From Escherichia phage SKA64, in sequence record OM362897.1: DNA of 64,000 nucleotides; one strand, 5' to 3'. Below, in pieces: positions 1,697-49,551 of the stretch. The translations under genes and the position numbers were made by a program. Below the pieces are notes generated by a model that worked only from the letters and a program-made list of their open reading frames with translations, was not told where the DNA came from and searched no databases. Each line of letters opens with the position of its first letter. The first letter of the stretch is position 1.

Positions 1697-2189
1697 TCGC
1701 CCAACGAGCGATTATTATCCAACACCGCAAAAAGCAATCAATAGTTTGTTTAGTGTTATAGATTTCAAAAATCTAAAGGAAGAAGGTTGGGTTTTTGCAG
1801 AACCTTGCAGAGGTGAAGCTGAAGCGATTTATCGCCATTTTCCTGAAGGTTCAGAATATTGCGAACTTGAAGAAGGTAAAGATTATTTTAGTCATGAATG
1901 GGAAAATCGTCCCGACATTATAATCACAAATCCTCCATTTAAGTTAGCAATGGAGTTCTTGGAAAAGAGCTTAAAAGAGGCGGATGTTTGTATTTATCTT
2001 CTTCGGTTGGGCTTCTTGGAGTCAAAGAAACGACGAGAGTTCCATCAAAAGAATCCACCAACAAACCTTATAGTCCTTTCAGAACGGCCTTCGTTTGTTG
2101 CAGGTGGAACAGATAAGACAGCATACGCTTGGTATGTATACGACCCAAAGAATCGTTTGGGCCTCTCTCAACCATTTTATTTTGTTTAA
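1680..2189 (+). CDS. short Rossmann-fold methyltransferase-like protein (NPPF motif; N6-adenine/amino-MTase-like)
   Basis: FAEPCRGEAEAI (motif I-like) then IIITNPPF (motif IV of amino-methyltransferases); only 169 aa. Confidence 0.45.
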   Translation: MALDYDRPTSDYYPTPQKAINSLFSVIDFKNLKEEGWVFAEPCRGEAEAIYRHFPEGSEYCELEEGKDYFSHEWENRPDIIITNPPFKLAMEFLEKSLKEADVCIYLLRLGFLESKKRREFHQKNPPTNLIVLSERPSFVAGGTDKTAYAWYVYDPKNRLGLSQPFYFV

Positions 2190-2201
2190 GGAGTGTGAAC
2201 T

Positions 2202-2438
2202 ATGGGTAAACTAATTATGACAGTGGCTATTGATTTTGATGAAGTAGATGAAAGCCTCAACCTTTCACTTTCTACTGACGTAGATGGCGAAATGGATAAT
2301 ATTGAAGCAGCTACTGCTCTTTTCTTCAAAAAAGCCATTGAAGTTTATGCCGAACATGCTGCAAATCAGGCAGTAGATTACGGTGGTATCGTGCGAGCTT
2401 TAGTTCACTCTACCGAGGGCAATGACTGGGAAGATTAA
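2202..2438 (+). CDS. hypothetical protein
   Basis: ORF track; GGAG RBS; acidic. Confidence 0.5.
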   Translation: MGKLIMTVAIDFDEVDESLNLSLSTDVDGEMDNIEAATALFFKKAIEVYAEHAANQAVDYGGIVRALVHSTEGNDWED

Positions 2439-2641
2439 TGGCTTACAATTATTACTGCATTTATGCACATGAAAAGAAAAAAGGTGACACTGGGACTAAC
2501 GTTTATGCGGAGTCCGAATCTCATGCAAAAGAGATTGGTGCTATCCTTTTATCACGCTGGACTGGAAATAATTACAGTGCAGAAGATATGTTTGCAGAAG
2601 TGGATTCTAGAATCCAAGAAGACAACATAACAACTACGTGA
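2438..2641 (+). CDS. hypothetical protein
   Basis: ORF track; ATGG overlap with upstream stop. Confidence 0.5.
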   Translation: MAYNYYCIYAHEKKKGDTGTNVYAESESHAKEIGAILLSRWTGNNYSAEDMFAEVDSRIQEDNITTT

Positions 2642-2650
2642 TATACTTAT

Positions 2651-2676
2651 ACTCCCTTTTCGGAGGGAGTATTTTA
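2651..2676 (+). terminator. rho-independent terminator
   Basis: hairpin actccctTTTCGgagggagt followed by ATTTT. Confidence 0.6.
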
Positions 2677-2686
2677 AGGAGGGATT

Positions 2687-2881
2687 ATGCAGAGCGGAGA
2701 AGAACTTTTAGAGAAACAATTCTCAACGCGTCAACAAGCTTTAAGTTATATGGTTTTTCTAAGCAATCTTGATGTGAATGAGATACTTTTACGGCGCGAA
2801 GGTAATTTCTGGAGCGTTAAATATCATGCAACAAGGTCTGTAATCTACCTGGAAGAGGCGGAATTCTCTTTGGTAGAATGA
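2687..2881 (+). CDS. hypothetical protein
   Basis: ORF track; AAGGAGGG RBS. Confidence 0.5.
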   Translation: MQSGEELLEKQFSTRQQALSYMVFLSNLDVNEILLRREGNFWSVKYHATRSVIYLEEAEFSLVE

Positions 2882-2895
2882 TCCGAGGAGTAGTT

Positions 2896-3468
2896 ATGCG
2901 TTCAACTTTCACTGGCAAAATAAATGCTGGTTTGATTTTTACAGCAGTAAGCATTCTTAGCAAAAAGTTTAAAGTTGTTAACTTACCTGTGTGTGTCGAT
3001 TTCGATCATGTTTTTGATCCTTCGAACCCCACTCGTTGCATAGTAAGGAGTAATGTTGAAAACCCAACAGAAAATCTTTTTTATGTAACAAAACCATCTC
3101 AAAGCATACTTAACCAGGTTGAGGCGAAATTGATACCTAACGGTAAATATTACTCCTTTTTACCTTGTAAGTCGGTTGAAGTAGAGAATAGCAATACTTT
3201 CGCTAATAACTTGTCTGTATTCGTTTTCTTTGTTTCACAGGAAGACGAAACAGATGAAATGGTAGCAACAGTGAGATCACTTTATGACTCTTTAGGGGTT
3301 GTTTATAGTCAACAAGTGTGCGAAAATAATAAAGCCTGTGTAGATTTCATTATCAACGGTATTTGTGTTTGTAGAGTAGAATCTTTTTGGCTGCACGATA
3401 CATATGTGACTGTAGCAGAGGTTATATCTGAACCAAGATTTAGTCATGCGGTTTCGTTAATAATTTGA
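2896..3468 (+). CDS. hypothetical protein
   Basis: ORF track 2878..3468; ATG at 2896 after GAGGAG chosen. Confidence 0.55.
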   Translation: MRSTFTGKINAGLIFTAVSILSKKFKVVNLPVCVDFDHVFDPSNPTRCIVRSNVENPTENLFYVTKPSQSILNQVEAKLIPNGKYYSFLPCKSVEVENSNTFANNLSVFVFFVSQEDETDEMVATVRSLYDSLGVVYSQQVCENNKACVDFIINGICVCRVESFWLHDTYVTVAEVISEPRFSHAVSLII

Positions 3469-3478
3469 GGAGGAAGGA

Positions 3479-3808
3479 ATGGAAATTACTACAGAACAAG
3501 CCCTTATCGATGAGGGTCGTAAAATCTTAGAAAAGTATTTAGGGGAGATTCATAAAACCCCTGGCTATTTGGGTTGGAGAATTGTTGAAGCTGTAGATTT
3601 CCTTCCTCGTAACAGTAAAAACGTCGAAATGCGATCTCTTTTCTTATTAGTAAAGGTGGATGGGGATACGCCTTTTAAAGATGCCGCAGAACATATTGAA
3701 AAAGTTGAAGAGAAAGCTTATGCAGAATTTGCCGATCTTGTTTTAGAACAAGAGATTGAAGGAAAGGTGAATATTTTTATTTTCTTAGATTTTGAGGAGG
3801 ATAAGTGA
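3479..3808 (+). CDS. hypothetical protein
   Basis: ORF track; GGAGGAAGGA RBS. Confidence 0.55.
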   Translation: MEITTEQALIDEGRKILEKYLGEIHKTPGYLGWRIVEAVDFLPRNSKNVEMRSLFLLVKVDGDTPFKDAAEHIEKVEEKAYAEFADLVLEQEIEGKVNIFIFLDFEEDK

Positions 3809-4548
3809 TCATACACAGAGAAATTACTGTTAAAAGCGATCAAGATCTTTTTATAATTGGAGATCTACACGGTTGTTATAATTTGTATGAAAAAGGAAAG
3901 GCAAAGTTAGGTATCCGAGATACAGATGTGGTTGTATCTCTAGGAGATCTTACTGACCGTGGAAAGCAAAACTTTCGTTGTGTTTTAGAATTTACTCGTA
4001 AACACAATCGCTACGCTATTCGTGGCAATCATGAAGACATGATGATTAAAGGTATGCTGGAAGGAGATCGTAGCTACTACGAGTGTTGGTATCAAAATGG
4101 AGGATATACGGTCTTTGAAGAATGTGGTGAAGAAGGAGCTACAGCCTTAGCAATGATGACAGAAGATTTACCTGTTGTTCTCATTGTTAACTACAGAGGC
4201 ATGAAACTTGCGTTTATTCATGGTGGGTATCCATCTTCTTTGGAATATCTCCCTGTAACAGATATTCCAGAATACATTTCGAAGATGACAAAAACACAGG
4301 AAAACCGTTTTGCTGAAGCACTTATGTGGGACAGAGATATGGTAGACTGTGCTAAAGAGGGAATGAAACTTCCTGTTGTGATGGGTGTGGATTATGTGTT
4401 TCATGGACACTCTTATGTAAAAACACCTATTATCAATGCGAATCGTGTTTATATGGATACTGGATCTGTGTTCAATAATAACTTAACATTTGCTTATTTC
4501 GATATGGACGGTGGTCTTCAATTTTATTCAACTCTTGAGGAGGATTAA
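3805..4548 (+). CDS. PPP-family Ser/Thr protein phosphatase / calcineurin-like metallophosphoesterase
   Basis: GDLHG, GDLTDRG and GNHE motifs in canonical order; 247 aa. Confidence 0.8.
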   Translation: MIIHREITVKSDQDLFIIGDLHGCYNLYEKGKAKLGIRDTDVVVSLGDLTDRGKQNFRCVLEFTRKHNRYAIRGNHEDMMIKGMLEGDRSYYECWYQNGGYTVFEECGEEGATALAMMTEDLPVVLIVNYRGMKLAFIHGGYPSSLEYLPVTDIPEYISKMTKTQENRFAEALMWDRDMVDCAKEGMKLPVVMGVDYVFHGHSYVKTPIINANRVYMDTGSVFNNNLTFAYFDMDGGLQFYSTLEED

Positions 4549-40468: not shown

Positions 40469-40523
40469 AGCGGGAACTATTCCCGCTTTATGTAACATAT
40501 TAACAAATTATTCGTTAATGTCA
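40469..40523 (-). promoter_or_regulatory. promoter + leader hairpin cassette
   Basis: minus strand TTGACA ... TAATAT ... gcgggaatagttcccgc. Confidence 0.5.
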
Positions 40524-40527
40524 AGCC

Positions 40528-40800
40528 TTAAAGCAAAAACGCTACATCTTGCGCTTTTAGTGTAGTATCAACCATTTTCGGGCTTTTATAATCAACAAAG
40601 CGCGCGGTTTTTTCAATAGCGAAACCGAGATAATCTTGTTTATTGAATTTACATTCTTTCTTAAATGTTTCCCGCGCCACGGTGATCGCTGCGTCCAGGG
40701 ATAAACGCCCGTCAATGTTGATATTTGCGAAAGATCCGCCACCGCTCATAGGTTTACCAGTGGTGCCAGTTACGATCATTGTTGCGCTATATGATGCCAT
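40528..40800 (-). CDS. hypothetical protein
   Basis: ORF track; AGAAGAGAGAAATC RBS. Confidence 0.55.
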   Translation of the reverse strand: MASYSATMIVTGTTGKPMSGGGSFANINIDGRLSLDAAITVARETFKKECKFNKQDYLGFAIEKTARFVDYKSPKMVDTTLKAQDVAFLL

Positions 40801-40821
40801 GATGATTTCTCTCTTCTGTTA

Positions 40822-40879
40822 GGCGGGGCGCTTGTCGCCCCTATGTGATACATCTTATCAGGTTGTGGCTTGTTGTCAA
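40822..40879 (-). promoter_or_regulatory. promoter + leader hairpin cassette
   Basis: minus strand TTGACA ... TAAGAT, CACATAGGGG + ggggcgacaagcgccccgcc. Confidence 0.55.
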
Positions 40880-40884
40880 GACTT

Positions 40885-41082
40885 TTATTCTATTCCTGCA
40901 ATCTGCTTAACGCGCTTGCATTTTGCAGTATGCTGATCTTCTGTAATTACTCCCATTTCTAACAGTGAATCAATGAAAGATAAAACCGTTTCATGATCAT
41001 CTTGGGGATGACTGAACTCAGTAAAACCGTTTACTATTACGTTGATTTGTCCAGCTTTCGCCACAATGTGCAATGTTGCCAT
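40885..41082 (-). CDS. hypothetical protein (65 aa)
   Basis: internal ATG (MATLHIV) after GGAG. Confidence 0.5.
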   Translation of the reverse strand: MATLHIVAKAGQINVIVNGFTEFSHPQDDHETVLSFIDSLLEMGVITEDQHTAKCKRVKQIAGIE

Positions 41083-41103
41083 GATCTTAACTCCAAATAG
41101 TGA

Positions 41104-41160
41104 GCGGCACCATTGCCGCCCTACGTGGTAAATATTATGCCGCCACCTGGCGAACGTCAA
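41104..41160 (-). promoter_or_regulatory. promoter + leader hairpin cassette
   Basis: minus strand TTGACG ... TAATAT, TTACCACGTAGGG + gcggcaatggtgccgc. Confidence 0.5.
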
Positions 41161-41268
41161 CCACTTTTTCAATCTTTTTATTTTCTTTTTGCTTGCTATA
41201 TATAAAGGAAAGGGCTATCATCTTTCTACCGCGCCAACCAGGGCGCACAACAAAGAAAGGGCGACACC

Positions 41269-41535
41269 ATGACAAATACTACATTACACCTTATGCACTC
41301 ATTGGGCTGGCAAGGCGGCACGGTGCACCAGGTAGCAAGCGCAACGGGCTTAAAGGTTGAAACCGTTCTCAACCTATCAGATTATAAGGTCGAGGATAGT
41401 TATCAATTACAAAGTTACACGGGCGGTTTTACCTGGGCGCGTGAAGGTGGGAAAGAAAGCAATATACCACATTGGGGAAAAGGTGATATTCATTTTTGGC
41501 TAGGTGTCCTGACCTGGCAAGAAAACAAAAAATAA
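41269..41535 (+). CDS. hypothetical protein (lone + strand gene inside - block)
   Basis: ORF track; AAAGGG upstream; no clear promoter assigned. Confidence 0.45.
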   Translation: MTNTTLHLMHSLGWQGGTVHQVASATGLKVETVLNLSDYKVEDSYQLQSYTGGFTWAREGGKESNIPHWGKGDIHFWLGVLTWQENKK

Positions 41536-41537
41536 TC

Positions 41538-41566
41538 TTGACAAGCCCAGGGATCGGGCTTATACT
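41538..41566 (+). promoter_or_regulatory. sigma70-like promoter (alternatively part of a weak terminator)
   Basis: TTGACA, 17 bp, TATACT; spacer itself is a small hairpin agccc...gggct. Confidence 0.35.
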
Positions 41567-41572
41567 GTTTTA

Positions 41573-41680
41573 CATACAGAAGAGGAAGCGCCACCCCACG
41601 GCGTAAAGGCGGGGCTAACATACCAGGGGCACTGGTTGGAAGGTTGATCGCCGGTAGGCTGGGCGCTATATATTTGTAAA
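41573..41680 (+). ncRNA. candidate structured small RNA
   Basis: GC-rich non-coding segment after promoter; closing stem AGCGCC (about 41587-41592) with GGCGCT (about 41662-41667), internal CCCC/GGGG and CCAG/CTGG stems, then AUAUAUUUG. Confidence 0.3.
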
Positions 41681-41785
41681 GAAATGTAAAGATAAAATAA
41701 TCGCTTGCTTTCCTGGGTGGATCTGTTATTCTTATTACATGGCGAGGGGACACGGGAGCGCGAGACAAACACCGCCCCTGCGCGT

Positions 41786-41903
41786 CATTCTCTAAATGAG
41801 AATGATTATCATTTACCTTATCAAATAAGAATCAATCTCATTTATAAACCTAAATGCGAATCATTATCATTTGCATTTCCATATGAGAACTCTTCTCATT
41901 CCC
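41786..41903. promoter_or_regulatory. cluster of Fur-box-like AT-rich operator motifs
   Basis: GAGAATGATTATCATTTAC (41798-41816; 15 of 19 matches to GATAATGATAATCATTATC), GCGAATCATTATCATTTGC (41856-41874), palindromes CATTCTCtaaatGAGAATG and ATGAGAActcTTCTCAT. Confidence 0.35.
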
Positions 41904-41921
41904 ATCTGCATAAATTTTTGT

Positions 41922-42098
41922 AAACTTTAAATTTTGCTTTTGTACTTTCATTTTTGTAAAAGCAAAAAAACTTTAAATACTGTGGGCGCGCAAAATTTTT
42001 AAAATTTTCCTTGATTTTTGAGTTTTGTTTTGTATCTGACATTTTAAGATAATTTTCCTAAACTTTAAATTTTGGTTTTCAACTTTCACTTTTGTAAA
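41922..42098. repeat. AT-rich 39 bp direct repeat pair
   Basis: AAACTTTAAATTTTGCTTTTGTACTTTCATTTTTGTAAA (41922-41960) vs AAACTTTAAATTTTGGTTTTCAACTTTCACTTTTGTAAA (42060-42098). Confidence 0.5.
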
Positions 42099-42261
42099 TT
42101 CTTAAAAAGTTTAAATAATTTGAGGGATTTTTGAGATAATAGGTAATGGGAATTTGAGATAACCTTTAATCTTATTGGCAGACCTTCAGGAACCCACTCA
42201 GATCGAATCCTAGTGATGCAAACTGAAAAAGACAAGGGTTTGTATAGGACAAAATAATAGG

Positions 42262-42290
42262 CTCTCTACGGTGCTGTAGGAGCCTTATTT
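42262..42290 (-). terminator. rho-independent terminator (bidirectional-capable)
   Basis: ggctctctacggtgctgtaggagcc hairpin with T/U-rich tracts on both sides; downstream of minus gene ending 42341. Confidence 0.55.
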
Positions 42291-42340
42291 CTGTGCTACA
42301 AAGTGACGCCTTTGTTCTAAAAATGAAAAAAGTTAAAATA

Positions 42341-42883
42341 TCACAAATATCGTCTTTGCGGTATTTTGTCTGGGAAAAGTATTTCGATCAGTTTGTTATG
42401 ATATTTACCTAAAAGATTTTGCCCTTTCCAGTTGACCGGATTTAGCACCCCTGGTTCATACATTCCCATTCCAATACCGTAAACCTTATCGTAAGGACTT
42501 GCTTCAACAAACGTTTTGTATTGGTAAAGGTGTAAGTCTGCATACAAATCTGGATTCTGTACATATTTCAAGCATAAACCTCGCATAACAATACGCTCAC
42601 GGTTCTCTTCCCATACATTGTTATCAAAATCCGACACTGCCCTACCCATACGTTTGTAATAAGCCTGGATCTTCTCATCTTTCCGTATCAAACTATGAGT
42701 CAGAATAGCCTGTGCAGTGTTGTGATCATTAAAAAGCAAAGCTTTACGCCACATCATGTATTGTTCGACACAATTAAATGTCTGATTGTAACCTGGTTCG
42801 GTTTCTGTAAAGGGTGCAATATACCAATTACTAAAAACATCTTTATGTGAAAAGAAGAATACATAATCATCAGTTATTCGCAT
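42341..42883 (-). CDS. NADAR (YbiA-like) domain protein
   Basis: FFFSHKDVFSNWYIAPF, VEQYMMWRKAL, LCLKYVQNPDLYADLHLY, FVEASPYDKVYGIGMG match YbiA/NADAR blocks. Confidence 0.8.
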   Translation of the reverse strand: MRITDDYVFFFSHKDVFSNWYIAPFTETEPGYNQTFNCVEQYMMWRKALLFNDHNTAQAILTHSLIRKDEKIQAYYKRMGRAVSDFDNNVWEENRERIVMRGLCLKYVQNPDLYADLHLYQYKTFVEASPYDKVYGIGMGMYEPGVLNPVNWKGQNLLGKYHNKLIEILFPDKIPQRRYL

Positions 42884-43094
42884 TTTTCATACTCTCCAAA
42901 ATTTCACGTTGCCCTTGCTGATAGGCTTTCATCAGAACTACTTTAAGGTTTGTCTCCAAGAGGTCTTCATTGTAATTATACCGCTCCACAACATATGTCA
43001 ATTCATCATAAAGATCAAGAACGGGGTAGAATACAGGGTTATCTGCTAAACGTGCCATAGTTTCTCCTTTGTTAATCCATCCACCAGTAGCCAT
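42870..43094 (-). CDS. hypothetical protein
   Basis: ORF track. Confidence 0.5.
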   Translation of the reverse strand: MATGGWINKGETMARLADNPVFYPVLDLYDELTYVVERYNYNEDLLETNLKVVLMKAYQQGQREILESMKNANN

Positions 43095-43437
43095 AAACTG
43101 CGTCTGCGTCGATGAGTTTGTGTTTGTTGTTCCGCATGTAGTCTAAGATAAGTAGACGTTTATTGTATCTGGAGAGATTATGACCCTCTTTTCCGCCATA
43201 GTCAAAATATTTTGCAAGATCTTTGCACTCAAACAAAATTAGTTCGGGAGTTTCTTCACACTGGTCTGTCTGGTACACTTGACGAATGATCATGTATACA
43301 TCATCGTCTTCCGCTAAATGCTCTACTGGTCCACATCCAGCAGGAACAAATTCATAGTCCCATCTGATCAGATGTTTCTCTACTGCTTCAAAGAAGTCCA
43401 TTCTTTCGTTGCGCATAATTTGAACGTCAACTAACAT
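43072..43437 (-). CDS. hypothetical protein
   Basis: ORF track. Confidence 0.5.
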   Translation of the reverse strand: MLVDVQIMRNERMDFFEAVEKHLIRWDYEFVPAGCGPVEHLAEDDDVYMIIRQVYQTDQCEETPELILFECKDLAKYFDYGGKEGHNLSRYNKRLLILDYMRNNKHKLIDADAVYGYWWMD

Positions 43438-44411
43438 GTTTCCTCCTGTAATATTCCACCATAAAGTTTATAAATGTTTTGTATTGATGCCATGCAAGAT
43501 AACTCTACTGTTTCTGTGTAGCCATCTGGCATAGCATATTTGCTCACTGCTTCCGTATCAAGAATACGCTTACAACGACTCTCTGCATCTTTGCACTGCT
43601 TAACAGTAGGGAAGTGCCACACTTGGTGTTGTTTCATAGTTAACACATTATGGCTATTTTGTTCTTTAATACGCCTATCGCTATCTTTAGTAATGCCAAA
43701 TTTCAAGGCACAGAGAACACCTTGTTCATCATAGACATAGTTAATGTAACATTGCTGTTGATTTTTGTTAGCACAATGCGGACAACCTTGACCCAGGTTT
43801 AATAAGCTATTAGCACTCCCTATATGCTCCCCGTGATCCTTACACCCATATTTAAACTTCCCTATTGATGAGGGTTTACTGATCCACTCTATCCAGATAT
43901 ATCCTTTACTTTCTAAACCTTTTCTCACTTTGTAGGTGATTTGTTCGTCTGTATAATGATAATTTTTAGAACAACGGCAAGGGAGACTCCCTCTTTTAAG
44001 GTTATTCCCTTGTGCATAAAACCTGCCATCACAGACGTGAGCTTGCACATATTCATCATGGGAACATTTAGGACATTCAACCATCCAGATAATACTCTTC
44101 CCTTTACGTTTGCCTGTATTGGTGAAGATAGTTCCAGGCTTAAACTTCCCTGTACTTATGAAATTTTGTATGTGCTGATTGTCTGGAATAGCTTTTGCTT
44201 TACTTATTTTATCATACACACAGGTAGGGCAACCAGTACCCCGTTTAAAGTTATAAAAACAGCATGTATTCCATTCATGACCATGACTACAACGTAGGAT
44301 CATCTTCGTATGCGCACCTTTAAACGGCTCTACGATACCTATAATGGTAATCCCCTTAGTTTCCGCTATTGGTTTACATTCTTCCATGTACTGTTCTAAC
44401 GTCTTTGCCAT
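43431..44411 (-). CDS. multi-zinc-ribbon protein
   Basis: three C-x-H/C...C-x2-C modules (CSHGHEW...CPTC; CPKCSHDEY; CKDHGEH...CPHCANKN). Confidence 0.55.
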   Translation of the reverse strand: MAKTLEQYMEECKPIAETKGITIIGIVEPFKGAHTKMILRCSHGHEWNTCCFYNFKRGTGCPTCVYDKISKAKAIPDNQHIQNFISTGKFKPGTIFTNTGKRKGKSIIWMVECPKCSHDEYVQAHVCDGRFYAQGNNLKRGSLPCRCSKNYHYTDEQITYKVRKGLESKGYIWIEWISKPSSIGKFKYGCKDHGEHIGSANSLLNLGQGCPHCANKNQQQCYINYVYDEQGVLCALKFGITKDSDRRIKEQNSHNVLTMKQHQVWHFPTVKQCKDAESRCKRILDTEAVSKYAMPDGYTETVELSCMASIQNIYKLYGGILQEETC

Positions 44412-44439
44412 CTCTAACGATCCTCTCTCTCTATTAAAC

Positions 44440-44475
44440 TAAAATCAATATAACAAAACCCGCCGAAGCGGGTTT
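44440..44475 (-). terminator. rho-independent terminator (minus strand)
   Basis: aaacccgccgaagcgggttt hairpin with U-rich tail on minus strand. Confidence 0.55.
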
Positions 44476-44491
44476 AATAAATCTCAACTTA

Positions 44492-45631
44492 TTAGAACAC
44501 GCTACCTAATGTGGTGGAACGTTGTGTTACAGGCTCCAGCACCACTCGCAGAGTGTTTCCTGGTGTAGTGCTCATCACCAGAATCTTACCACCTTCAATC
44601 AGATCACAAGTTAGACCATCAGCAGTTGCACATAGATCAATATGTGGATCACCATCTTCATCCAGGATAACATAACTGTTGGTTTCCATTGCTTCCACTT
44701 CATCATCTTTCAAACTTTGTAGATAGATGTTCAGGGAACAAGCACCCGACAAAAACTTAGTAGGGGTGAAGTCGTGCCAGTTATTGATCCAATTCACCTT
44801 CAAGGTTTTGCCATTAGCTACGATAGAAGCCACATTCCATTTAGCATCGTTCCCTAAAGAAATACCCATCATTTCAAGACATTCTTTAAAAGTCATTTTT
44901 GGATAGAAATTCAATTCTTCTACAATGCCTTGAATAACATCGAAAGACAACTCTGTGCTAACATCCCATAAACGTTGGAAGTTATCTACGTGCTTTTTAT
45001 TTACCAAGTTCTTATCCAAGTAATCTAACATAGTTTCACTAGACAGTTTATCGTAATTGAAACTGTAGTAGATACGACTAGGACGGTTTACAAAATATTC
45101 CGAGATATAGCCACTATTTTTAGTGAGGATGTAAAGTTTATTTCCACTTCCTGTTCCATCCAACAAGGTCAACAGTGCTTCCTGATCTTCTTTCTTAGCG
45201 TACACTTTATCAAACTCGTCAAATAAAACAACAGCACGATCTGTAATTTTACTCATAAATTCTAAGAATCCAGCGTCTGTGTAAGGCTGTGTCACCAAAA
45301 TGGTTGGAATACCTAAACCTTCTGTGGACATTAGGGACATGCTAATCAGTTTAGCTAACATCGTCTTACCACTGCCCTTTGTCCCTGTCAGTAACACCCC
45401 AGTATTTTTACCTTCTTTACTACGACGAGCAAATGTTTTAATAACATGTGCGGCGCGGTCTTTAGTTTCCCCATAAAGAGTGTTCGGAAGAGAGAAACTT
45501 TCGCCACGCACTAAAGAGTAGTTACCGTGCGGATCGCAGTTGACAACCCAAACTCCAGCAGGAAGTTTATTAGCTTCAACACCATATTCCTTATTTACAA
45601 CAGCCACATCTCCAAAAATAGTGTATTTCAT
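44492..45631 (-). CDS. AAA+ family ATPase
   Basis: Walker A GTKGSGKT, Walker B VVLFDEFD. Confidence 0.7.
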   Translation of the reverse strand: MKYTIFGDVAVVNKEYGVEANKLPAGVWVVNCDPHGNYSLVRGESFSLPNTLYGETKDRAAHVIKTFARRSKEGKNTGVLLTGTKGSGKTMLAKLISMSLMSTEGLGIPTILVTQPYTDAGFLEFMSKITDRAVVLFDEFDKVYAKKEDQEALLTLLDGTGSGNKLYILTKNSGYISEYFVNRPSRIYYSFNYDKLSSETMLDYLDKNLVNKKHVDNFQRLWDVSTELSFDVIQGIVEELNFYPKMTFKECLEMMGISLGNDAKWNVASIVANGKTLKVNWINNWHDFTPTKFLSGACSLNIYLQSLKDDEVEAMETNSYVILDEDGDPHIDLCATADGLTCDLIEGGKILVMSTTPGNTLRVVLEPVTQRSTTLGSVF

Positions 45632-45987
45632 TAGAACGTTTCTCCTTTTAAAATAATTACTGTAAACTTTGCAGTTTTTTCACTCTTAATATTCTTGATT
45701 AATAAGTACTCTCCTCCAGGTGCATCTTTGTATTGTTTAATAGCTACTATTTCATTTTTGCAAGTAGCTATAATCGAATAAAAAGGACGTTCCGTGTTAT
45801 CTTCTTTTCCTGTATATGCCTCAACATCTTTGCACTCTTCTAGAACACCATTCCCAGGTGTATAGTAAAACTTGTTGCCTGTGATCACAACATCTTTACC
45901 AATATCCGTTTTAACTGCTACAAATTTTTGAGCATAAGTGGTGAAGCTTACGGTAGCCAGCAATGTGGCTAAGATTAATTTTTTCAT
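45631..45987 (-). CDS. secreted protein with Sec signal peptide
   Basis: internal ATG (MKKLILATLLATVSFTTYA-QK) after AGGAGGGAAG. Confidence 0.55.
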   Translation of the reverse strand: MKKLILATLLATVSFTTYAQKFVAVKTDIGKDVVITGNKFYYTPGNGVLEECKDVEAYTGKEDNTERPFYSIIATCKNEIVAIKQYKDAPGGEYLLIKNIKSEKTAKFTVIILKGETF

Positions 45988-45998
45988 AAACTTCCCTC

Positions 45999-46163
45999 CT
46001 ATTCCCACAACATACAAATCGCAGCGACAAACATATTAGCAATAGCCGCACCAAGAACTATAAACATCGCCAGTTCAGAACAATATTCACCAACCAGAGG
46101 GGATACTATTGCACAGAGTAATCCCAATGTCAAACACAAGTTGATGATGAAGTTTAAAATCAT
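45999..46163 (-). CDS. 54 aa membrane protein (not in ORF track)
   Basis: ATG after TAAGGAGAGAAT; MILNFIINLCLTLGLLCAIVSPLVGEYCSELAMFIVLGAAIANMFVAAICMLWE. Confidence 0.4.
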   Translation of the reverse strand: MILNFIINLCLTLGLLCAIVSPLVGEYCSELAMFIVLGAAIANMFVAAICMLWE

Positions 46164-46172
46164 ATTCTCTCC

Positions 46173-46364
46173 TTACAACCAACCTTTTGCCTGATAGCCT
46201 TTAGAAAATCCATCTTCCCATTCTTCGAATTCCTTTTTGTGTGTCATTGGACAATATGGATTTACTTTATTAAACATACCAAACTTGAACCCTGCGGTAT
46301 ACCCCTTCTTAAAAGCTATTGATTCTAAAGAGATCATATTCTTTCTCCTCTTAGAACTCGACAA
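46173..46364 (-). CDS. hypothetical protein
   Basis: ORF track; GAGGAGAAAG RBS. Confidence 0.5.
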   Translation of the reverse strand: MSSSKRRKNMISLESIAFKKGYTAGFKFGMFNKVNPYCPMTHKKEFEEWEDGFSKGYQAKGWL

Positions 46365-46602
46365 TGATTTTGTCTAAGTGTTCTGCTTCAACTTGGGATA
46401 ATGTTAACACCTGCACCAAACCTCTGTCAATACCAATTTTAATGACTTGCAAATAATTACCAAAAAGATCTGATAAAGAAATAGCATGTTCCGTAACTAC
46501 AATAACTTCATTACCTTTAGTGTATTCTTTCCACACCCGACCACATTTATAAATGTAATCTTTTTGATCTTCAGTAATCATTTTAGGTTTGATACTTAAC
46601 AT
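46351..46602 (-). CDS. hypothetical protein
   Basis: ORF track. Confidence 0.5.
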   Translation of the reverse strand: MLSIKPKMITEDQKDYIYKCGRVWKEYTKGNEVIVVTEHAISLSDLFGNYLQVIKIGIDRGLVQVLTLSQVEAEHLDKIIVEF

Positions 46603-46958
46603 TACATACTCCCGTATTCTGGTTCAATATTATGTTTACGACAAATGGTATCCCAACGTTCATTACCAAAACTTCTTCCATGTAGAGCGTTAAATGCGAA
46701 ATGCTCTGCCAACCACAATACTACATCATCAGGATCTGTGTCAAGAGGAATTCTAAACTCTCGATCATAACGCATACGCAGAATAAAATCCTTATCATCT
46801 TCAAGGAGATACATGTGACTTTTAGCCCGTGATGCCAAATCAAAGAAAGGAGGCTCATCTTTCCAAATGTGACGCTCAACTTCAACACCATGATCAACTA
46901 CCAGAGTAGCGATCACCTCTCTCATTTCTTTACTAAACATATTACCTCCATTAACCAA
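46602..46958 (-). CDS. hypothetical protein
   Basis: ORF track; GGAGG RBS. Confidence 0.5.
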   Translation of the reverse strand: MVNGGNMFSKEMREVIATLVVDHGVEVERHIWKDEPPFFDLASRAKSHMYLLEDDKDFILRMRYDREFRIPLDTDPDDVVLWLAEHFAFNALHGRSFGNERWDTICRKHNIEPEYGSM

Positions 46959-47139
46959 TTAGTTCAACCGATTTGCAAATGTAAATCCAAACTGGAGTGA
47001 GCATAAGAGCTATACCGAATACACAATTCCACTTAATTCCCATTTCCTCTATTAGAGACATGATTAAGCCAACAGCACTAATAATCAGATAGATCCCTAA
47101 GAAAGCCATTGTGAAGAATTCAGACATATTTAGCTCCAA
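46951..47139 (-). CDS. small membrane protein
   Basis: ORF track; two hydrophobic helices. Confidence 0.5.
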   Translation of the reverse strand: MELNMSEFFTMAFLGIYLIISAVGLIMSLIEEMGIKWNCVFGIALMLTPVWIYICKSVELIG

Positions 47140-47486
47140 AGATTATCAAAATAACTAGCGAATAAAAGACGGCCCTCTAATCGTGCCTTCCTTTGATCTT
47201 CAGCATACACGATTTCTGGATTACCACTATCAATAAAAGCATTCTCCATCTTTTCTAAAATATTTAACCACTCTCTTCTACCTGTCTCCTCTTCTTCATC
47301 TGTATACGGCGCACTTCTATTTGGATACAAAACACGCATCAGTTTAGTGGGGATCATGACAAACGTGCTATTGTTTGCCTTCTCACGGAAGGCTTTAATT
47401 CCTGCATAGATTACCTTCCCCAAAGCTGCATCCAAATCCATCAGGTCACTTTCTTCTATTTGAATTTCATCGTGTACAATTTTCAT
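47130..47486 (-). CDS. hypothetical protein
   Basis: ORF track. Confidence 0.5.
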   Translation of the reverse strand: MKIVHDEIQIEESDLMDLDAALGKVIYAGIKAFREKANNSTFVMIPTKLMRVLYPNRSAPYTDEEEETGRREWLNILEKMENAFIDSGNPEIVYAEDQRKARLEGRLLFASYFDNLWS

Positions 47487-47869
47487 CGTGCCTTCTCCCG
47501 ATCTGCATCTAATTTCAACAAGAAAGCTGTATACTCTTCCGAACCTTGGTGTAAAAACATGCGATAAGAGCTTACCAGTTTCTTGGTCGTTGTATAACGT
47601 TCCATTTCCCCAACAACACCTCCACCTAGTGTGTAGAGCACAATACCTTCAACTCCAACATGGGTTACTACTTCAACCAAGTCTGTGTTATCCCAATGAT
47701 AGTTAGGTGACACAATAAGATCGCCAACTGCCAGTTTAATGTTTGCTACTTCATTTTGTGAATAATACATTTGGTCCTCCTCTCTTAATTGATGGAAGTA
47801 GTATACCTTACCACATAATCTCGCGCAACTCTTTTTCTTCTTTAAAATTACGTAAGTTTTCCAGTGCAC
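47483..47869 (-). CDS. hypothetical protein
   Basis: ORF track. Confidence 0.5.
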   Translation of the reverse strand: MHWKTYVILKKKKSCARLCGKVYYFHQLREEDQMYYSQNEVANIKLAVGDLIVSPNYHWDNTDLVEVVTHVGVEGIVLYTLGGGVVGEMERYTTTKKLVSSYRMFLHQGSEEYTAFLLKLDADREKAR

Positions 47870-48299
47870 GATTTAGGTCTTCTTCCGTCTCTGCTTTCTG
47901 GACTTTTTCCATCATTTTCGCAACAATATTTTTCTTAACTTGCAAATCTGGAACAGGTATACGTTTTTCCATTTCATAAGCTTCTCGTTTATGACGTTCC
48001 TCCATCTCTGCTTTTTCTTTCACCCAATCCGCCTCGTCCATTGCACCTTTGCAGACACAAGTGTAACCTTTAATAGTATAATCACCATGTTCAATACCAG
48101 GTTGAAGAGCTAAGGCTTCATTACCACAATACGCGCACAACGGACGACCTGGCATTTTCAAAGTTTTGGTAGCCTTAGCGCCACATTGACTATCCCAGCT
48201 TGTTTTATAACTGGAACCGTTGTCTCCGTGAGAACGACCAACCAAGAAGTTACGGAAGAAACCCATAGCACGTTCGTCAATGTAATCAGGGTAAGCCAT
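47808..48299 (-). CDS. hypothetical Cys-containing protein
   Basis: ORF track; CAYCGN...CVCKG. Confidence 0.5.
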   Translation of the reverse strand: MAYPDYIDERAMGFFRNFLVGRSHGDNGSSYKTSWDSQCGAKATKTLKMPGRPLCAYCGNEALALQPGIEHGDYTIKGYTCVCKGAMDEADWVKEKAEMEERHKREAYEMEKRIPVPDLQVKKNIVAKMMEKVQKAETEEDLNRALENLRNFKEEKELREIMW

Positions 48300-48311
48300 T
48301 ATATTCTCCTT

Positions 48312-48605
48312 TCACATTAAGACACGTTTTGTGTCGATGGGTGCATTATCAAACATGTTAAGAACATTGTCAAGCAGTTTTACTAATTCATTTGTAATTT
48401 GTTCTTTTGAACGGGAGGAAGTGAGCACTTTGCTTTCACCAACGATATGCATAACTTTTATAGGAGCGTCTAAAATGATGTTGTGTTGACGATCCTCTTC
48501 AAAAGAAGCCAACCATTTCTCATTGTTACCGTGCAAGGCTACAATCACACCAAAACCGTTAATTGTTTCAGAAATATTCTTAGTTGCTAAAGTAATGTTC
48601 ATCAT
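48312..48605 (-). CDS. hypothetical protein
   Basis: ORF track; first gene of - block after divergent region. Confidence 0.5.
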   Translation of the reverse strand: MMNITLATKNISETINGFGVIVALHGNNEKWLASFEEDRQHNIILDAPIKVMHIVGESKVLTSSRSKEQITNELVKLLDNVLNMFDNAPIDTKRVLM

Positions 48606-48661
48606 CTACCTCTCTTGTTAATGTTCATACATGATACCTGAAAATAATTTCAGATCAAGTG

Positions 48662-48689
48662 TTGACATGCTTTTTAGTCCTGTTAAGAT
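48662..48689 (+). promoter_or_regulatory. sigma70-like promoter in divergent region
   Basis: TTGACA, 16 bp, TAAGAT, about 30 nt upstream of ATG 48720. Confidence 0.5.
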
Positions 48690-48719
48690 CAACTCATACA
48701 AAACGAGAGGAGAAAACAA

Positions 48720-49148
48720 ATGCAAAACATGACTTGGACCGAAGCTAAAGAAGCGATGCAGAATGGCAAACGTGTGAAGCACGAATACTTCTGTAGTGAT
48801 GAGTGGTTTGAGATGCAATACGGTGTTATTCTGGATGAGCATGGCTACAATATGTCAAACTGGTTCCGAGGGGAAGCTTGGCAAGAACAGGGTTGGTTTG
48901 TAATTGAAAAAGAAGACAGTAAGGAAGAAGGCGTGTTGTCTAATGTAGAACGCGAGATGAGGGAAACAAAGATACCTGCTTTGGATTTTGTATACCTGGA
49001 AGAACTTGTGGCAGCATCTTTTGTAGCAGGAAACCTTTGGAATACACCTGTTAGCCGACTGGAGAACCAAAATAACCCGTCTGCTCGTAATCACAAGCTT
49101 TATAAGGGTAAAGGTCACAACAAATTAAAGAAAGGAAAGAAGAAATGA
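48720..49148 (+). CDS. hypothetical protein
   Basis: ORF track; GAGAGGAGAAAAC RBS. Confidence 0.55.
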   Translation: MQNMTWTEAKEAMQNGKRVKHEYFCSDEWFEMQYGVILDEHGYNMSNWFRGEAWQEQGWFVIEKEDSKEEGVLSNVEREMRETKIPALDFVYLEELVAASFVAGNLWNTPVSRLENQNNPSARNHKLYKGKGHNKLKKGKKK

Positions 49149-49294
49149 TCTACAAAAACAAGTTCACTGGTTGTCTCCGTAAATTTATCGATAAGAAAGG
49201 GTTTGTTTCTCTTGACAAGGGTGTTACGTGGGTGCAAAATGGCACTTCAGAACAACTGATCAAGGCTTTACCTTACTATGAGGAGGTTTTATGA
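49145..49294 (+). CDS. 49 aa small protein (not in ORF track)
   Basis: ATGA overlaps on both ends; MIYKNKFTGCLRKFIDKKGFVSLDKG... Confidence 0.4.
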   Translation: MIYKNKFTGCLRKFIDKKGFVSLDKGVTWVQNGTSEQLIKALPYYEEVL

Positions 49295-49551
49295 CACTTT
49301 ATCACGTAACTACAGAAGGCGACTGTGAAGGCCGCACTACAAAAGATTTGGGGTATGTTGAAGCAGATTCACCTGAACATGCTATCAAATACCTGCATTC
49401 CATCGGGAAGTATGCGGGTTATGAGTATACTATCTACGAGGTTGAAATTATTAACCTTATACAAGTGGCAACTCCTATGGCAGAGTTGAAACATCTTAAG
49501 GCAAAAGTAAGACCTGGTGTAGTGTCCGATTACAAAGGGGAAGTAAAGTGA
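49291..49551 (+). CDS. hypothetical protein
   Basis: ORF track; GAGGAGG RBS. Confidence 0.5.
   Translation: MTLYHVTTEGDCEGRTTKDLGYVEADSPEHAIKYLHSIGKYAGYEYTIYEVEIINLIQVATPMAELKHLKAKVRPGVVSDYKGEVK

Follow-up and report, generated by a model that had tools for sequence, protein, structure and literature searches.

Introduction

Homing endonuclease genes (HEGs) of the T5orf172 type are typically built from repeated zinc fingers (CapR, DUF723 or DUF4379) and a T5orf172 domain, and they are found, with shuffling of the repeats, at boundaries of exchange (Barth et al., 2023; PMC10448857). Indeed, 87% of them carry such CapR, DUF723 or DUF4379 repeats (PMC10448857). In ICP1, these HEGs (gp165, gp174 and others; PMC10448857) encode N-terminal tandem zinc-finger repeats followed by a C-terminal T5orf172/GIY-YIG nuclease, vary in repeat number, shuffle their modules and lie beside a conserved gene at a genetic-exchange boundary, all features which they have in common with the gene described below. 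From such nucleases derives CapR, the DNA-binding-only repressor of the Vibrio cholerae PLE satellites, whose DNA binding requires the cysteines of a CxxC...CxC pattern (Netter et al., 2021; PMC8096241).

Here, we describe a locus of Escherichia phage SKA64 (OM362897.1), of which a stretch of 64,000 nucleotides, hereafter the window, was analysed. The window is that of a phAPEC8-like E. coli myophage (Phapecoctavirus, Stephanstirmvirinae), and among the best literature matches on phAPEC8, Phapecoctavirus and Stephanstirmvirinae, only genome and host-range work was found, with no functional study of either of the two genes considered here. An earlier note on this DNA had seen in them an ATPase paired with a zinc-ribbon protein. 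We propose that the second gene is probably a free-standing homing-endonuclease-type T5orf172 (GIY-YIG superfamily) nuclease gene, inserted between a conserved ATPase gene and a block of small open reading frames and NADAR.

Organization of the Locus

On the minus strand, the gene of a 379-aa AAA ATPase is followed by an intrinsic terminator and then by the gene of a 326-aa protein with three zinc modules, both open reading frames being where the earlier note had placed them:

44492..45631, minus strand: classical-clade AAA ATPase, 379 aa (open reading frame; Pfam AAA; PHROG 2376)
45362..45385, minus strand: Walker A of the ATPase, GTKGSGKT, aa 83-90, read off the sequence
45215..45232, minus strand: Walker B of the ATPase, VVLFDE, aa 134-139, read off the sequence
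44446..44475, minus strand: intrinsic terminator, AAACCCGC-TTCG-GCGGGTTT and T-rich tail (hairpin 44456-44475), between ATPase stop and nuclease start
43431..44411, minus strand: T5orf172/GIY-YIG-family homing-endonuclease-like gene, 326 aa
44202..44396, minus strand: zinc-finger module 1, about aa 6-70, ligands C41, H43/H45, C61, C64, overlapping a DUF4379 treble-clef match
43968..44162, minus strand: zinc-finger module 2, aa 84-148, C113-x2-C116...C145-x-C147, the best CapR stretch
43764..43955, minus strand: zinc-finger module 3, about aa 153-216, ligands C190, H193, C210, C213
43452..43760, minus strand: GIY-YIG-fold (T5orf172-type) nuclease domain, aa 218-320
42341-42883: NADAR gene (Pfam 1.8e-35)

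The NADAR gene is not the immediate neighbor, as had been supposed, two small open reading frames of 121 and 74 aa lying between it and the nuclease gene. The terminator was correctly noticed: 17 nt past the ATPase stop codon, it has an 8-bp GC-rich stem, a TTCG loop and a T-rich tail, and it outranks all other terminator-like sites in an 8.5-kb scan. At this position, Schickermooser has a hairpin of another sequence. The interval from the terminator to the nuclease start codon yielded no sigma-70-like promoter. Paralogues of the ATPase or nuclease gene are absent from the rest of the 64-kb window, as are tRNA genes from the window, and there is no Rfam match in 40500-49500. An iteron-like array (41790-41900) lies 1.3 kb downstream.

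A Predicted Nuclease With Three CapR-Type Zinc Fingers

The statement of the earlier note that neither protein matches a nameable function does not hold for the zinc-ribbon protein, which matches PHROG 681 'endonuclease' (2.6e-66), CapR and DUF4379, and has homologues with DUF723 and T5orf172/MUG113. The CapR homology domain occurs three times (Pfam E 6.7e-27), far beyond chance, in agreement with the three zinc modules already noted, and DUF4379 is matched at 2.8e-4 (Pfam). Module 2 has the canonical CxxC...CxC pattern as defined for CapR (PMC8096241), and none of the seven Cys ligands in modules 1 and 2 varies among 37 nuclease homologues; DUF723 and CapR are found in this set. The 326-aa protein has the same zinc-finger domain as the satellite repressor (Pfam PF21817), but with three fingers and a nuclease domain: it shares the CapR domain and is not a CapR orthologue.

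What had been overlooked is the C-terminal nuclease domain of 110 residues. Its predicted fold is confidently of GIY-YIG type, with the beta-beta-alpha-beta-alpha core, and Y222, K237-F238-G239, R247, E277 and G297-x-T299-E300-T301 are invariant in the 37 homologues, down to about 30% identity. From their position in the fold, these invariant Tyr, Arg and Glu residues would be equivalent to Y6/Y17, R27 and E75 of I-TevI. The profile scores of the 326-aa protein itself are sub-threshold, with 17.2 bits for Pfam T5orf172 (gathering cut-off 20) and 18.8 bits for MUG113 (cut-off 22.3). Within the family, T5orf172 is matched by 12 of the 37 homologues (best 1.9e-5) and MUG113 by nine; the allele of alia reaches 20.1 bits. 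The homologues of phAPEC8, Schickermooser and alia are already annotated as 'endonuclease' in RefSeq, and the ICP1 HEGs are direct tblastn matches to the 326-aa protein (about 28% identity, E 1e-18). A sequence search of the PDB gave no match for the nuclease, NCBIfam no equivalog match for either protein, and PADLOC no match for the nuclease and no system-level match for either protein.

In comparison with I-TevI, the T4 Seg proteins and SLX1/HIGLE, to which it is only 12-15% identical, the 326-aa protein has a reversed domain order, with the nuclease C-terminal, and zinc-finger repeats in place of a helix-turn-helix or NUMOD module for DNA binding. It differs from the ICP1 HEGs in belonging to a coliphage lineage with near-fixation at a single locus in two genera, where those are sporadic, and in its own sub-threshold T5orf172 score.

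Regarding selection, dN/dS is 0.24 over the whole nuclease and does not reach 1 in any module; the nuclease domain, at 0.15, has the lowest value after that of zinc module 3. Catalytic-type residues being kept under purifying selection, nuclease function appears to have been retained.

The AAA ATPase

For the ATPase, the biological role remains, as the earlier note had it, without a name. Its AAA core (aa 56-255) is preceded by a small beta domain (aa 1-45) and followed by a beta-rich C-terminal domain (aa 264-368). Its Walker motifs are indeed clean: in a 44-sequence alignment, G83, K85, G86, G88, K89 and T90 of Walker A, D138, E139 and F140 of Walker B, the sensor-1 N172 and the arginine-finger motif RPSR (aa 183-186) are all invariant. 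Pfam AAA is matched at E 8.7e-7, exceeding the gathering cut-off, and PHROG 2376 'ATPase' at 3.9e-111, while PADLOC gave generic P-loop matches only (at most 21 bits).

In a fold search of the kind suggested by the earlier note, the AF2 model (pLDDT 85.7) has Bcs1, Rpt, FtsH, Cdc48 and NSF as its top Foldseek matches in the PDB (E 2e-8 to 1e-6, probability 1.00); the whole nuclease model found nothing significant there. A profile search of the PDB placed the D2 domain of Cdc48/p97 first (1e-7). The ATPase is a classical-clade AAA protein (Cdc48/Bcs1/Rpt-like) and probably a hexameric AAA protein remodeller. With members of this clade (Cdc48/p97 D2, AFG2, Rix7/NVL, Bcs1, proteasomal Rpt and FtsH), it has in common Walker A and B, the sensor-1 Asn and the RPxR motif of the second region of homology, but its AAA module is single and is flanked by a small beta domain of its own at the N terminus and by a beta-rich one of about 105 aa at the C terminus, and it is only 14-21% identical to any solved structure. 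Past strand 110-113 (QPYTDAGF), the sequence has no obvious pore loop of the canonical aromatic-hydrophobic-Gly type. The family is widespread in large virulent phages, with more than 700 homologues, and no solved structure or assigned function was found for any member, including in the profile search of the PDB.

Exchange of the Nuclease Cassette

The two genes have discordant histories. About 60 phage records have the ATPase protein at 100% identity, whereas no other nuclease allele exceeds 76%, with the exception of one metagenomic cluster at 99%; at 90% clustering, the ATPase forms one cluster and the nuclease at least 10. Compared with phAPEC8, dS is 0.73 for the nuclease and 0.06-0.10 for the ATPase, the 121-aa gene and NADAR (the ATPase having a dN of 0 and a dS of 0.10), and the identity of the window drops from 96-100% in the flanks to 66-83% over most of the nuclease gene. 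Such a difference in dS (0.73 vs 0.1) indicates allele replacement and not rapid in-place adaptive change.

Homology breaks coincide with the borders of the nuclease gene. With Schickermooser, homology (98% and 90%) ends at the ATPase stop codon and restarts 30 nt before the nuclease stop, enclosing an allele of 486 aa with five repeats, 37% identical to the window protein. Alleles carry 3, 4 or 5 zinc repeats, and the DNA-binding half, in which the repeat number varies, is the most diverged part of the nuclease. Some alleles are mosaic, with zinc modules 57-69% but a nuclease domain only 47-48% identical to those of the window protein; others are 84-86% identical in the nuclease domain. No clear co-conversion gradient was seen against phAPEC8, the last 400 nt of the ATPase gene being 96-97% identical vs 98-100% elsewhere in the gene. 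An apparent swap of the DNA-binding half alone, in MRostami-2023b, was discarded, since in that unverified partial genome the stretch consists of 918 consecutive N.

In all the phapecoctaviruses and justusliebigviruses checked, the ATPase is followed by the nuclease, and 69 of 70 phapecoctavirus records have an occupied junction. The only 'empty site' in Phapecoctavirus, that of EP57, is an in-frame fusion of the ATPase and the 121-aa gene in a 130-kb record with several other deletions; it may be an assembly artefact and was not retained. Orthologous sites without the nuclease are found in Klebsiella phage phi1_175008 and in two metagenomic relatives (L016 and L017), whose ATPases are 57-64% identical to that of the window; small open reading frames come after the ATPase in these relatives, and in L016 the order is ATPase, 62 aa, 80 aa and NADAR. 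Beside more distant ATPase homologues, no nuclease was found in GAP32, EF24C, Aeromonas 4_4572, crAss-like cr272_1 or rV5-like contigs. The co-occurrence test covered 3-5 kb around the ATPase: L005-L008, L010-L013 and L015-L017 have no nuclease in that interval, and in L009 one lies 1.5 kb upstream on the opposite strand. Co-occurrence of the ATPase and the nuclease is confined to two genera.

With a terminator between them, discordant evolutionary histories (ATPase dN 0 and dS 0.10 vs nuclease dS 0.73), a cassette swapped at its own borders and ATPase loci devoid of the nuclease, the functional pairing implied by the earlier note is not supported.

A Proposed Homing Mechanism and Its Alternatives

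We infer DNA cleavage by the nuclease, a target site and active homing, which could proceed as follows. The three tandem CapR-type zinc fingers, arranged as beads on a string, would recognise a long DNA site, near which the C-terminal GIY-YIG-type domain would cut. In a mixed infection, the cut would fall in a related genome without this allele, and recombinational repair would copy the nuclease gene with some flanking sequence. As an outcome, the cassette would be exchanged independently of its neighbors and the zinc-finger array re-assorted (3 to 5 repeats). The ATPase would be merely a conserved neighbor, and its region possibly holds the nuclease target.

Several observations go against this reading: the T5orf172 and MUG113 scores of the 326-aa protein lie under the gathering cut-offs, the whole nuclease model had no significant match in the PDB, no clear co-conversion gradient was seen, and the one empty site in Phapecoctavirus (EP57) is doubtful. 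In addition, the gene is nearly fixed in Phapecoctavirus and Justusliebigvirus, yet it is under purifying selection. A purely selfish HEG without remaining empty sites is expected to decay. Near-fixation together with purifying selection fits equally well an ongoing competition of allele versus allele and a domestication of the nuclease. The latter, which we judge unlikely although worth considering, would have made of an HEG a fixed nuclease serving the phage, which might cut competing phages, satellites or their origins (as Odn of ICP1), or host DNA, and could double as a site-specific repressor (as I-TevI), an arms race re-programming its zinc-finger array. It would account for the occupied junctions (69 of 70 phapecoctavirus records and the justusliebigviruses checked), for purifying selection on the catalytic residues despite the apparent lack of empty sites in both genera, and for the marked divergence and variable repeat number of the DNA-binding half; the iteron-like array 1.3 kb downstream is also in its favor. 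Moreover, Odn-like T5orf172 nucleases aimed at putative E. coli satellites have been reported in the same phage subfamily (Inny, Muut and Mt1B1_P17) (Barth et al., PMC10448857). However, these Odn-like proteins carry RepA_N domains and not CapR arrays (PMC10448857), and the protein of Mt1B1_P17 at the present locus is an ordinary CapR-type allele. In addition, the contrast in dS corresponds to allele replacement, dN/dS stays below 1 in every module, and the nuclease gene is dispensable in related genera.

A more specific proposal, to which we give a still smaller chance, is that the gene, having ceased to be a selfish homing element, encodes a fixed, re-programmable exclusion nuclease of the phAPEC8- and phi92-like phages. 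As the CapR-array counterpart of ICP1 Odn, it would continually turn its array of 3-5 shuffled modules on new targets, be they co-infecting relatives or phage satellites of E. coli.

It is highly improbable that the 326-aa protein acts purely by DNA binding, as a regulator like the satellite CapR, with the nuclease domain as an inactive relic. DNA binding and transcriptional repression by CapR-homology zinc fingers are known from the PLE satellite (PMC8096241), and the T5orf172 and MUG113 scores are sub-threshold, but neither the GxTET motif nor the Tyr, Arg and Glu of the putative catalytic set vary in the 37 homologues, the nuclease domain has a dN/dS of 0.15 and a confident predicted GIY-YIG fold, and CapR itself has no nuclease domain. 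Finally, a two-component machine, in which the ATPase would load, regulate or power the zinc-ribbon nuclease, is scarcely credible and already largely refuted by the co-occurrence test: the genes are adjacent and co-oriented in two genera, and defence and repair systems often feature pairs of an ATPase and a nuclease, but a terminator separates the genes, an invariant ATPase stands beside exchanged nuclease alleles (37-76% identity, 3-5 repeats), orthologous ATPases (57-64% identity) and more distant homologues have no nuclease neighbor, PADLOC gave no system-level match, and the ATPase fold is of the protein-unfoldase type and not of the DNA-acting AAA+ clades.

Conclusion

An HEG-type nuclease beside a conserved ATPase is an ordinary arrangement in large phages, and the present gene is a new allele of a kind already described. 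As a coliphage case, the locus illustrates cleanly what has already been described in Vibrio and T5-like phages, a T5orf172 nuclease with shuffled zinc repeats at a recombination boundary next to an invariant gene, and its significance beyond annotation is little. If the exclusion-nuclease reading were true, the conserved slot after the AAA ATPase would be a dedicated 'specificity cassette' site. The phAPEC8-like phages are, moreover, therapeutic candidates carrying a hypervariable nuclease cassette, which can confuse assemblies, as seen in EP57, with its collapsed junction, and in MRostami-2023b, with its N-run. It is the ATPase, and not the 'pair', that is the more worthwhile question.

The ATPase and nuclease locus

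The window belongs to a large, virulent myophage of E. coli from the phAPEC8 group (subfamily Stephanstirmvirinae, genus Phapecoctavirus), and ~70 GenBank phage records share 90-95% identity with the 4.1 kb around its ATPase and nuclease genes, which sit in a long run of small minus-strand genes of early or middle type. The features are as follows.

41790-42135, repeat array region, inside an ORF-poor stretch (41540-42340)
42341-42883, minus strand, NADAR-domain protein (Pfam, 1.8e-35; PADLOC PDC-M42C, 2e-35)
43431-44411, minus strand, nuclease ORF, 326 aa; zinc-ligand sets C41/H43...C61/C64, C113/C116...C145/C147 and C190/H193...C210/C213
44475-44456, minus strand, intrinsic terminator-like hairpin, AAACCCGC-TTCG-GCGGGTTT, then a T-rich tail
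44492-45631, minus strand, ATPase ORF, 379 aa (Pfam AAA; PHROG 2376); Walker A GTKGSGKT (aa 83-90), Walker B VVLFDE (aa 134-139), sensor-1 Asn (N172), RPSR arginine-finger motif (aa 183-186)

The ATPase with its Walker motifs, the protein with three zinc modules and the intervening hairpin, all described in the earlier note, were confirmed. The hairpin starts 17 nt past the ATPase stop codon and is the strongest terminator-like site in the 8.5 kb scanned. The NADAR gene, said to be adjacent, is in fact separated from the nuclease gene by two small ORFs. Small low-identity islands relative to phAPEC8 occur at 41400-41500 (55%), in a 74-aa minus-strand ORF at 42870-43094 (67-80%) and at 46400-46600 (74-82%), in a backbone otherwise 96-100% identical; the nuclease gene is thus not the sole mosaic spot of the block.

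A probable zinc-finger nuclease of a known kind

Pfam fits the CapR homology domain three times, once to each zinc-ligand set (E 6.7e-27), and DNA binding by CapR requires CxxC...CxC cysteines (Netter et al. 2021, PMC8096241). The last 110 residues, overlooked in the earlier note, constitute the nuclease-domain region and give weak, sub-threshold Pfam matches to MUG113 and T5orf172 (GIY-YIG clan), families matched by 9 and 12 of the 37 homologues, respectively. As a whole, the protein falls into PHROG 681 'endonuclease' (2.6e-66), and its phAPEC8, Schickermooser and alia homologues already carry the RefSeq label 'endonuclease'. A confident AlphaFold model obtained from the 37-homologue alignment (pLDDT 93) has a beta-beta-alpha-beta-alpha domain at aa 220-283, and Y222, K237-F238-G239, R247, E277 and G297-x-T-E300-T are invariant in all 37 sequences, a pattern expected of an active site of GIY-YIG type; their correspondence to I-TevI residues is putative. 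The architecture, in which a CapR/DUF723/DUF4379 zinc-finger array precedes a T5orf172-type nuclease domain, is exactly that of the T5orf172 homing-endonuclease lineage, in which repeat-number variation and domain shuffling have also been described (Barth et al. 2023, PMC10448857). That neither protein matches a nameable function hence no longer holds for the zinc-ribbon protein, to which a named family and a probable activity can be assigned; it still stands for the role of the ATPase.

A classical-clade AAA ATPase

The ATPase scores above the Pfam AAA gathering threshold and matches PHROG 2376 'ATPase' end to end (3.9e-111); its Walker A, Walker B, N172 and RPSR motifs do not vary across 44 aligned homologues, whose identity falls to ~31%. 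In the AF2 model (pLDDT 85.7), residues 1-45 form a small N-terminal beta domain, residues 56-255 the AAA module and residues 264-368 a beta-rich C-terminal domain. The fold search proposed in the earlier note returned no match for the whole beads-on-a-string nuclease model; for the ATPase, Foldseek ranked Bcs1, proteasomal Rpt subunits, FtsH, Cdc48 and NSF at the top among PDB entries (E 2e-8 to 1e-6), and a profile search the p97/Cdc48 D2 domain, AFG2, NVL/Rix7 and PEX1 (1e-7). Fold model and sequence profiles therefore assign the protein to the classical AAA clade, whose members unfold and remodel proteins, and not to DNA-acting AAA+ proteins. Judged by clade membership alone, its substrate for remodelling or unfolding would be a protein of the host or the phage.

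More than 700 members of this family are detectable in large virulent phages, often among early genes or genes of nucleotide metabolism, with nrdD/G, UvrD-type helicase, primase or tRNA genes close by, and no solved structure or assigned function was found in the sources searched. Records of phi92-like phages (Justusliebigvirus) contain two paralogues each; no second copy lies within the 64-kb window. Two metagenomic clusters, P0004 (66% identity to the window ATPase) and P0038 (47%, near UvrD-type helicase, PRTase and macro-domain genes), probably derive from one contig (ERZ19041986 scaffold_126), since the longest contig is 154,307 bp for both.

Evolution of the nuclease gene

The two genes have discordant histories. 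In ~60 phage records the ATPase protein sequence is 100% identical, and it forms a single 90% cluster; the nuclease has a best full-length GenBank match of 75% and at least 10 clusters at the 90% level, 60-76% identical to the window protein, and metagenomic cluster P0121 is 99% identical to it. Against phAPEC8, the flanks reach 96-100% identity, most of the nuclease gene 66-83% and its 3' end 90-98%; the ATPase 3' end shows a slight sign of co-conversion. Nei-Gojobori dS between the same two phages is 0.10 for the ATPase (dN 0), 0.09 for a 121-aa gene (dN 0), 0.06 for NADAR and 0.73 for the nuclease; dN/dS of the latter is 0.24 for the whole gene and 0.15 for its nuclease domain. Such values indicate an allele much older than its surroundings and still under purifying selection, one that has been exchanged and is not decaying.

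The breakpoints fall at the borders of the nuclease gene. In Schickermooser, 98% identity stops at the ATPase stop codon and resumes at 90%, 30 nt before the nuclease stop; between them lies a 486-aa allele (37% identity) with five CapR repeats, preceded by its own, different terminator hairpin. At this locus alleles carry three (window), four (phAPEC8) or five (alia, Schickermooser) repeats. Some combine zinc modules 57-69% identical to those of the window with a nuclease domain of a different type (47-48%), and in others the nuclease domain reaches 84-86%.

All phapecoctaviruses and justusliebigviruses examined have the nuclease after the ATPase, and the junction is occupied in 69 of 70 phapecoctavirus records. 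It is empty of nuclease in Klebsiella phage phi1_175008 (same subfamily, ATPase 64%) and in L016, a 151-kb metagenomic relative (ATPase 57%) with the order ATPase - 62 aa - 80 aa - NADAR; L017, a 44% relative, lacks the nuclease too. No such nuclease neighbours the more distant ATPase homologues in GAP32, EF24C, Aeromonas 4_4572, a crAss-like phage or rV5-like contigs; in one contig with a distant homologue, a CapR/T5orf172 gene lies on the opposite strand, 1.5 kb upstream. PADLOC gave no defence-system match for either gene. Divergence, breakpoints, shuffling, distribution, distant neighbours and this null result all argue against the functional pairing implied in the earlier note: the comparative data indicate that the genes are real and are not a system, and with one of them having a nameable family, that interpretation is partly supported.

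Two records are unreliable despite their apparent informativeness. At 2880-2960, EP57 (OR544956.1) lacks exactly the nuclease gene: the ATPase, without its last 3 codons, runs in frame into the 121-aa gene, and a single CDS of 501 aa is annotated. This record spans 130.7 kb only, with other deletions nearby, and the gap reflects either a deletion in nature or variable regions that collapsed during assembly. MRostami-2023b (OQ031492.1, 'UNVERIFIED partial genome') has 918 N over the DNA-binding half of the gene (~3090-4000), which shows that the hypervariable cassette defeats reference-guided assembly; its nuclease-domain part is 99% identical to that of the window, so it probably carries the same allele. 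In a pair of rV5-like metagenomic contigs (1945-4513), nrdD beside the ATPase homologue is whole in L010; in L011 an ORF of 169 aa that contains an I-HmuI NUMOD-like domain interrupts it. The two contigs are a textbook case of presence/absence polymorphism, here of another homing endonuclease.

NADAR and the repeat array

Orphan phage NADARs are reported to neutralise the DarTG1 defence system (PMC11257639), which makes a counter-defence role plausible for the window NADAR. In several GenBank records it is misannotated as 'GTP cyclohydrolase II', and the ATPase...NADAR order is retained in L016, which has no nuclease gene. The array at 41790-42135 contains 3-4 copies of imperfect palindromes of ~22 nt (CTAAATGAGAATGATTATCATTT-like, 29-nt spacing), including an inverted pair (41793-41814/41823-41844), followed by two 72-nt AT-rich direct repeats (41913-41984 and 42051-42122, 82% identical). 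Annotated 'repeat_region' features occupy the corresponding position in phage alia, beyond its NADAR-like gene gp103, which is 64% identical in nt to the NADAR gene of the window. Given its iteron-like look and AT-rich region, the array could serve as an origin or bind a regulator; no tRNA or Rfam match was found there.

A probable homing element

The nuclease gene is most likely a free-standing homing-endonuclease-type element between the conserved ATPase gene and the small-ORF/NADAR block. Its zinc-finger array would recognise a long site, the GIY-YIG-type domain would cut a co-infecting relative devoid of the allele, and repair would copy the cassette into the cut genome. Such an element would account for the discordant dS, border breakpoints, mosaic modules, patchy distribution across genera and terminator insulation. 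Near-fixation in two genera and purifying selection, the weak point of homing, would suit equally well a domesticated, Odn-like exclusion or anti-satellite nuclease, which we consider rather unlikely. The window gene is a new allele of an already known kind of phage nuclease, beside a conserved uncharacterised phage AAA ATPase.
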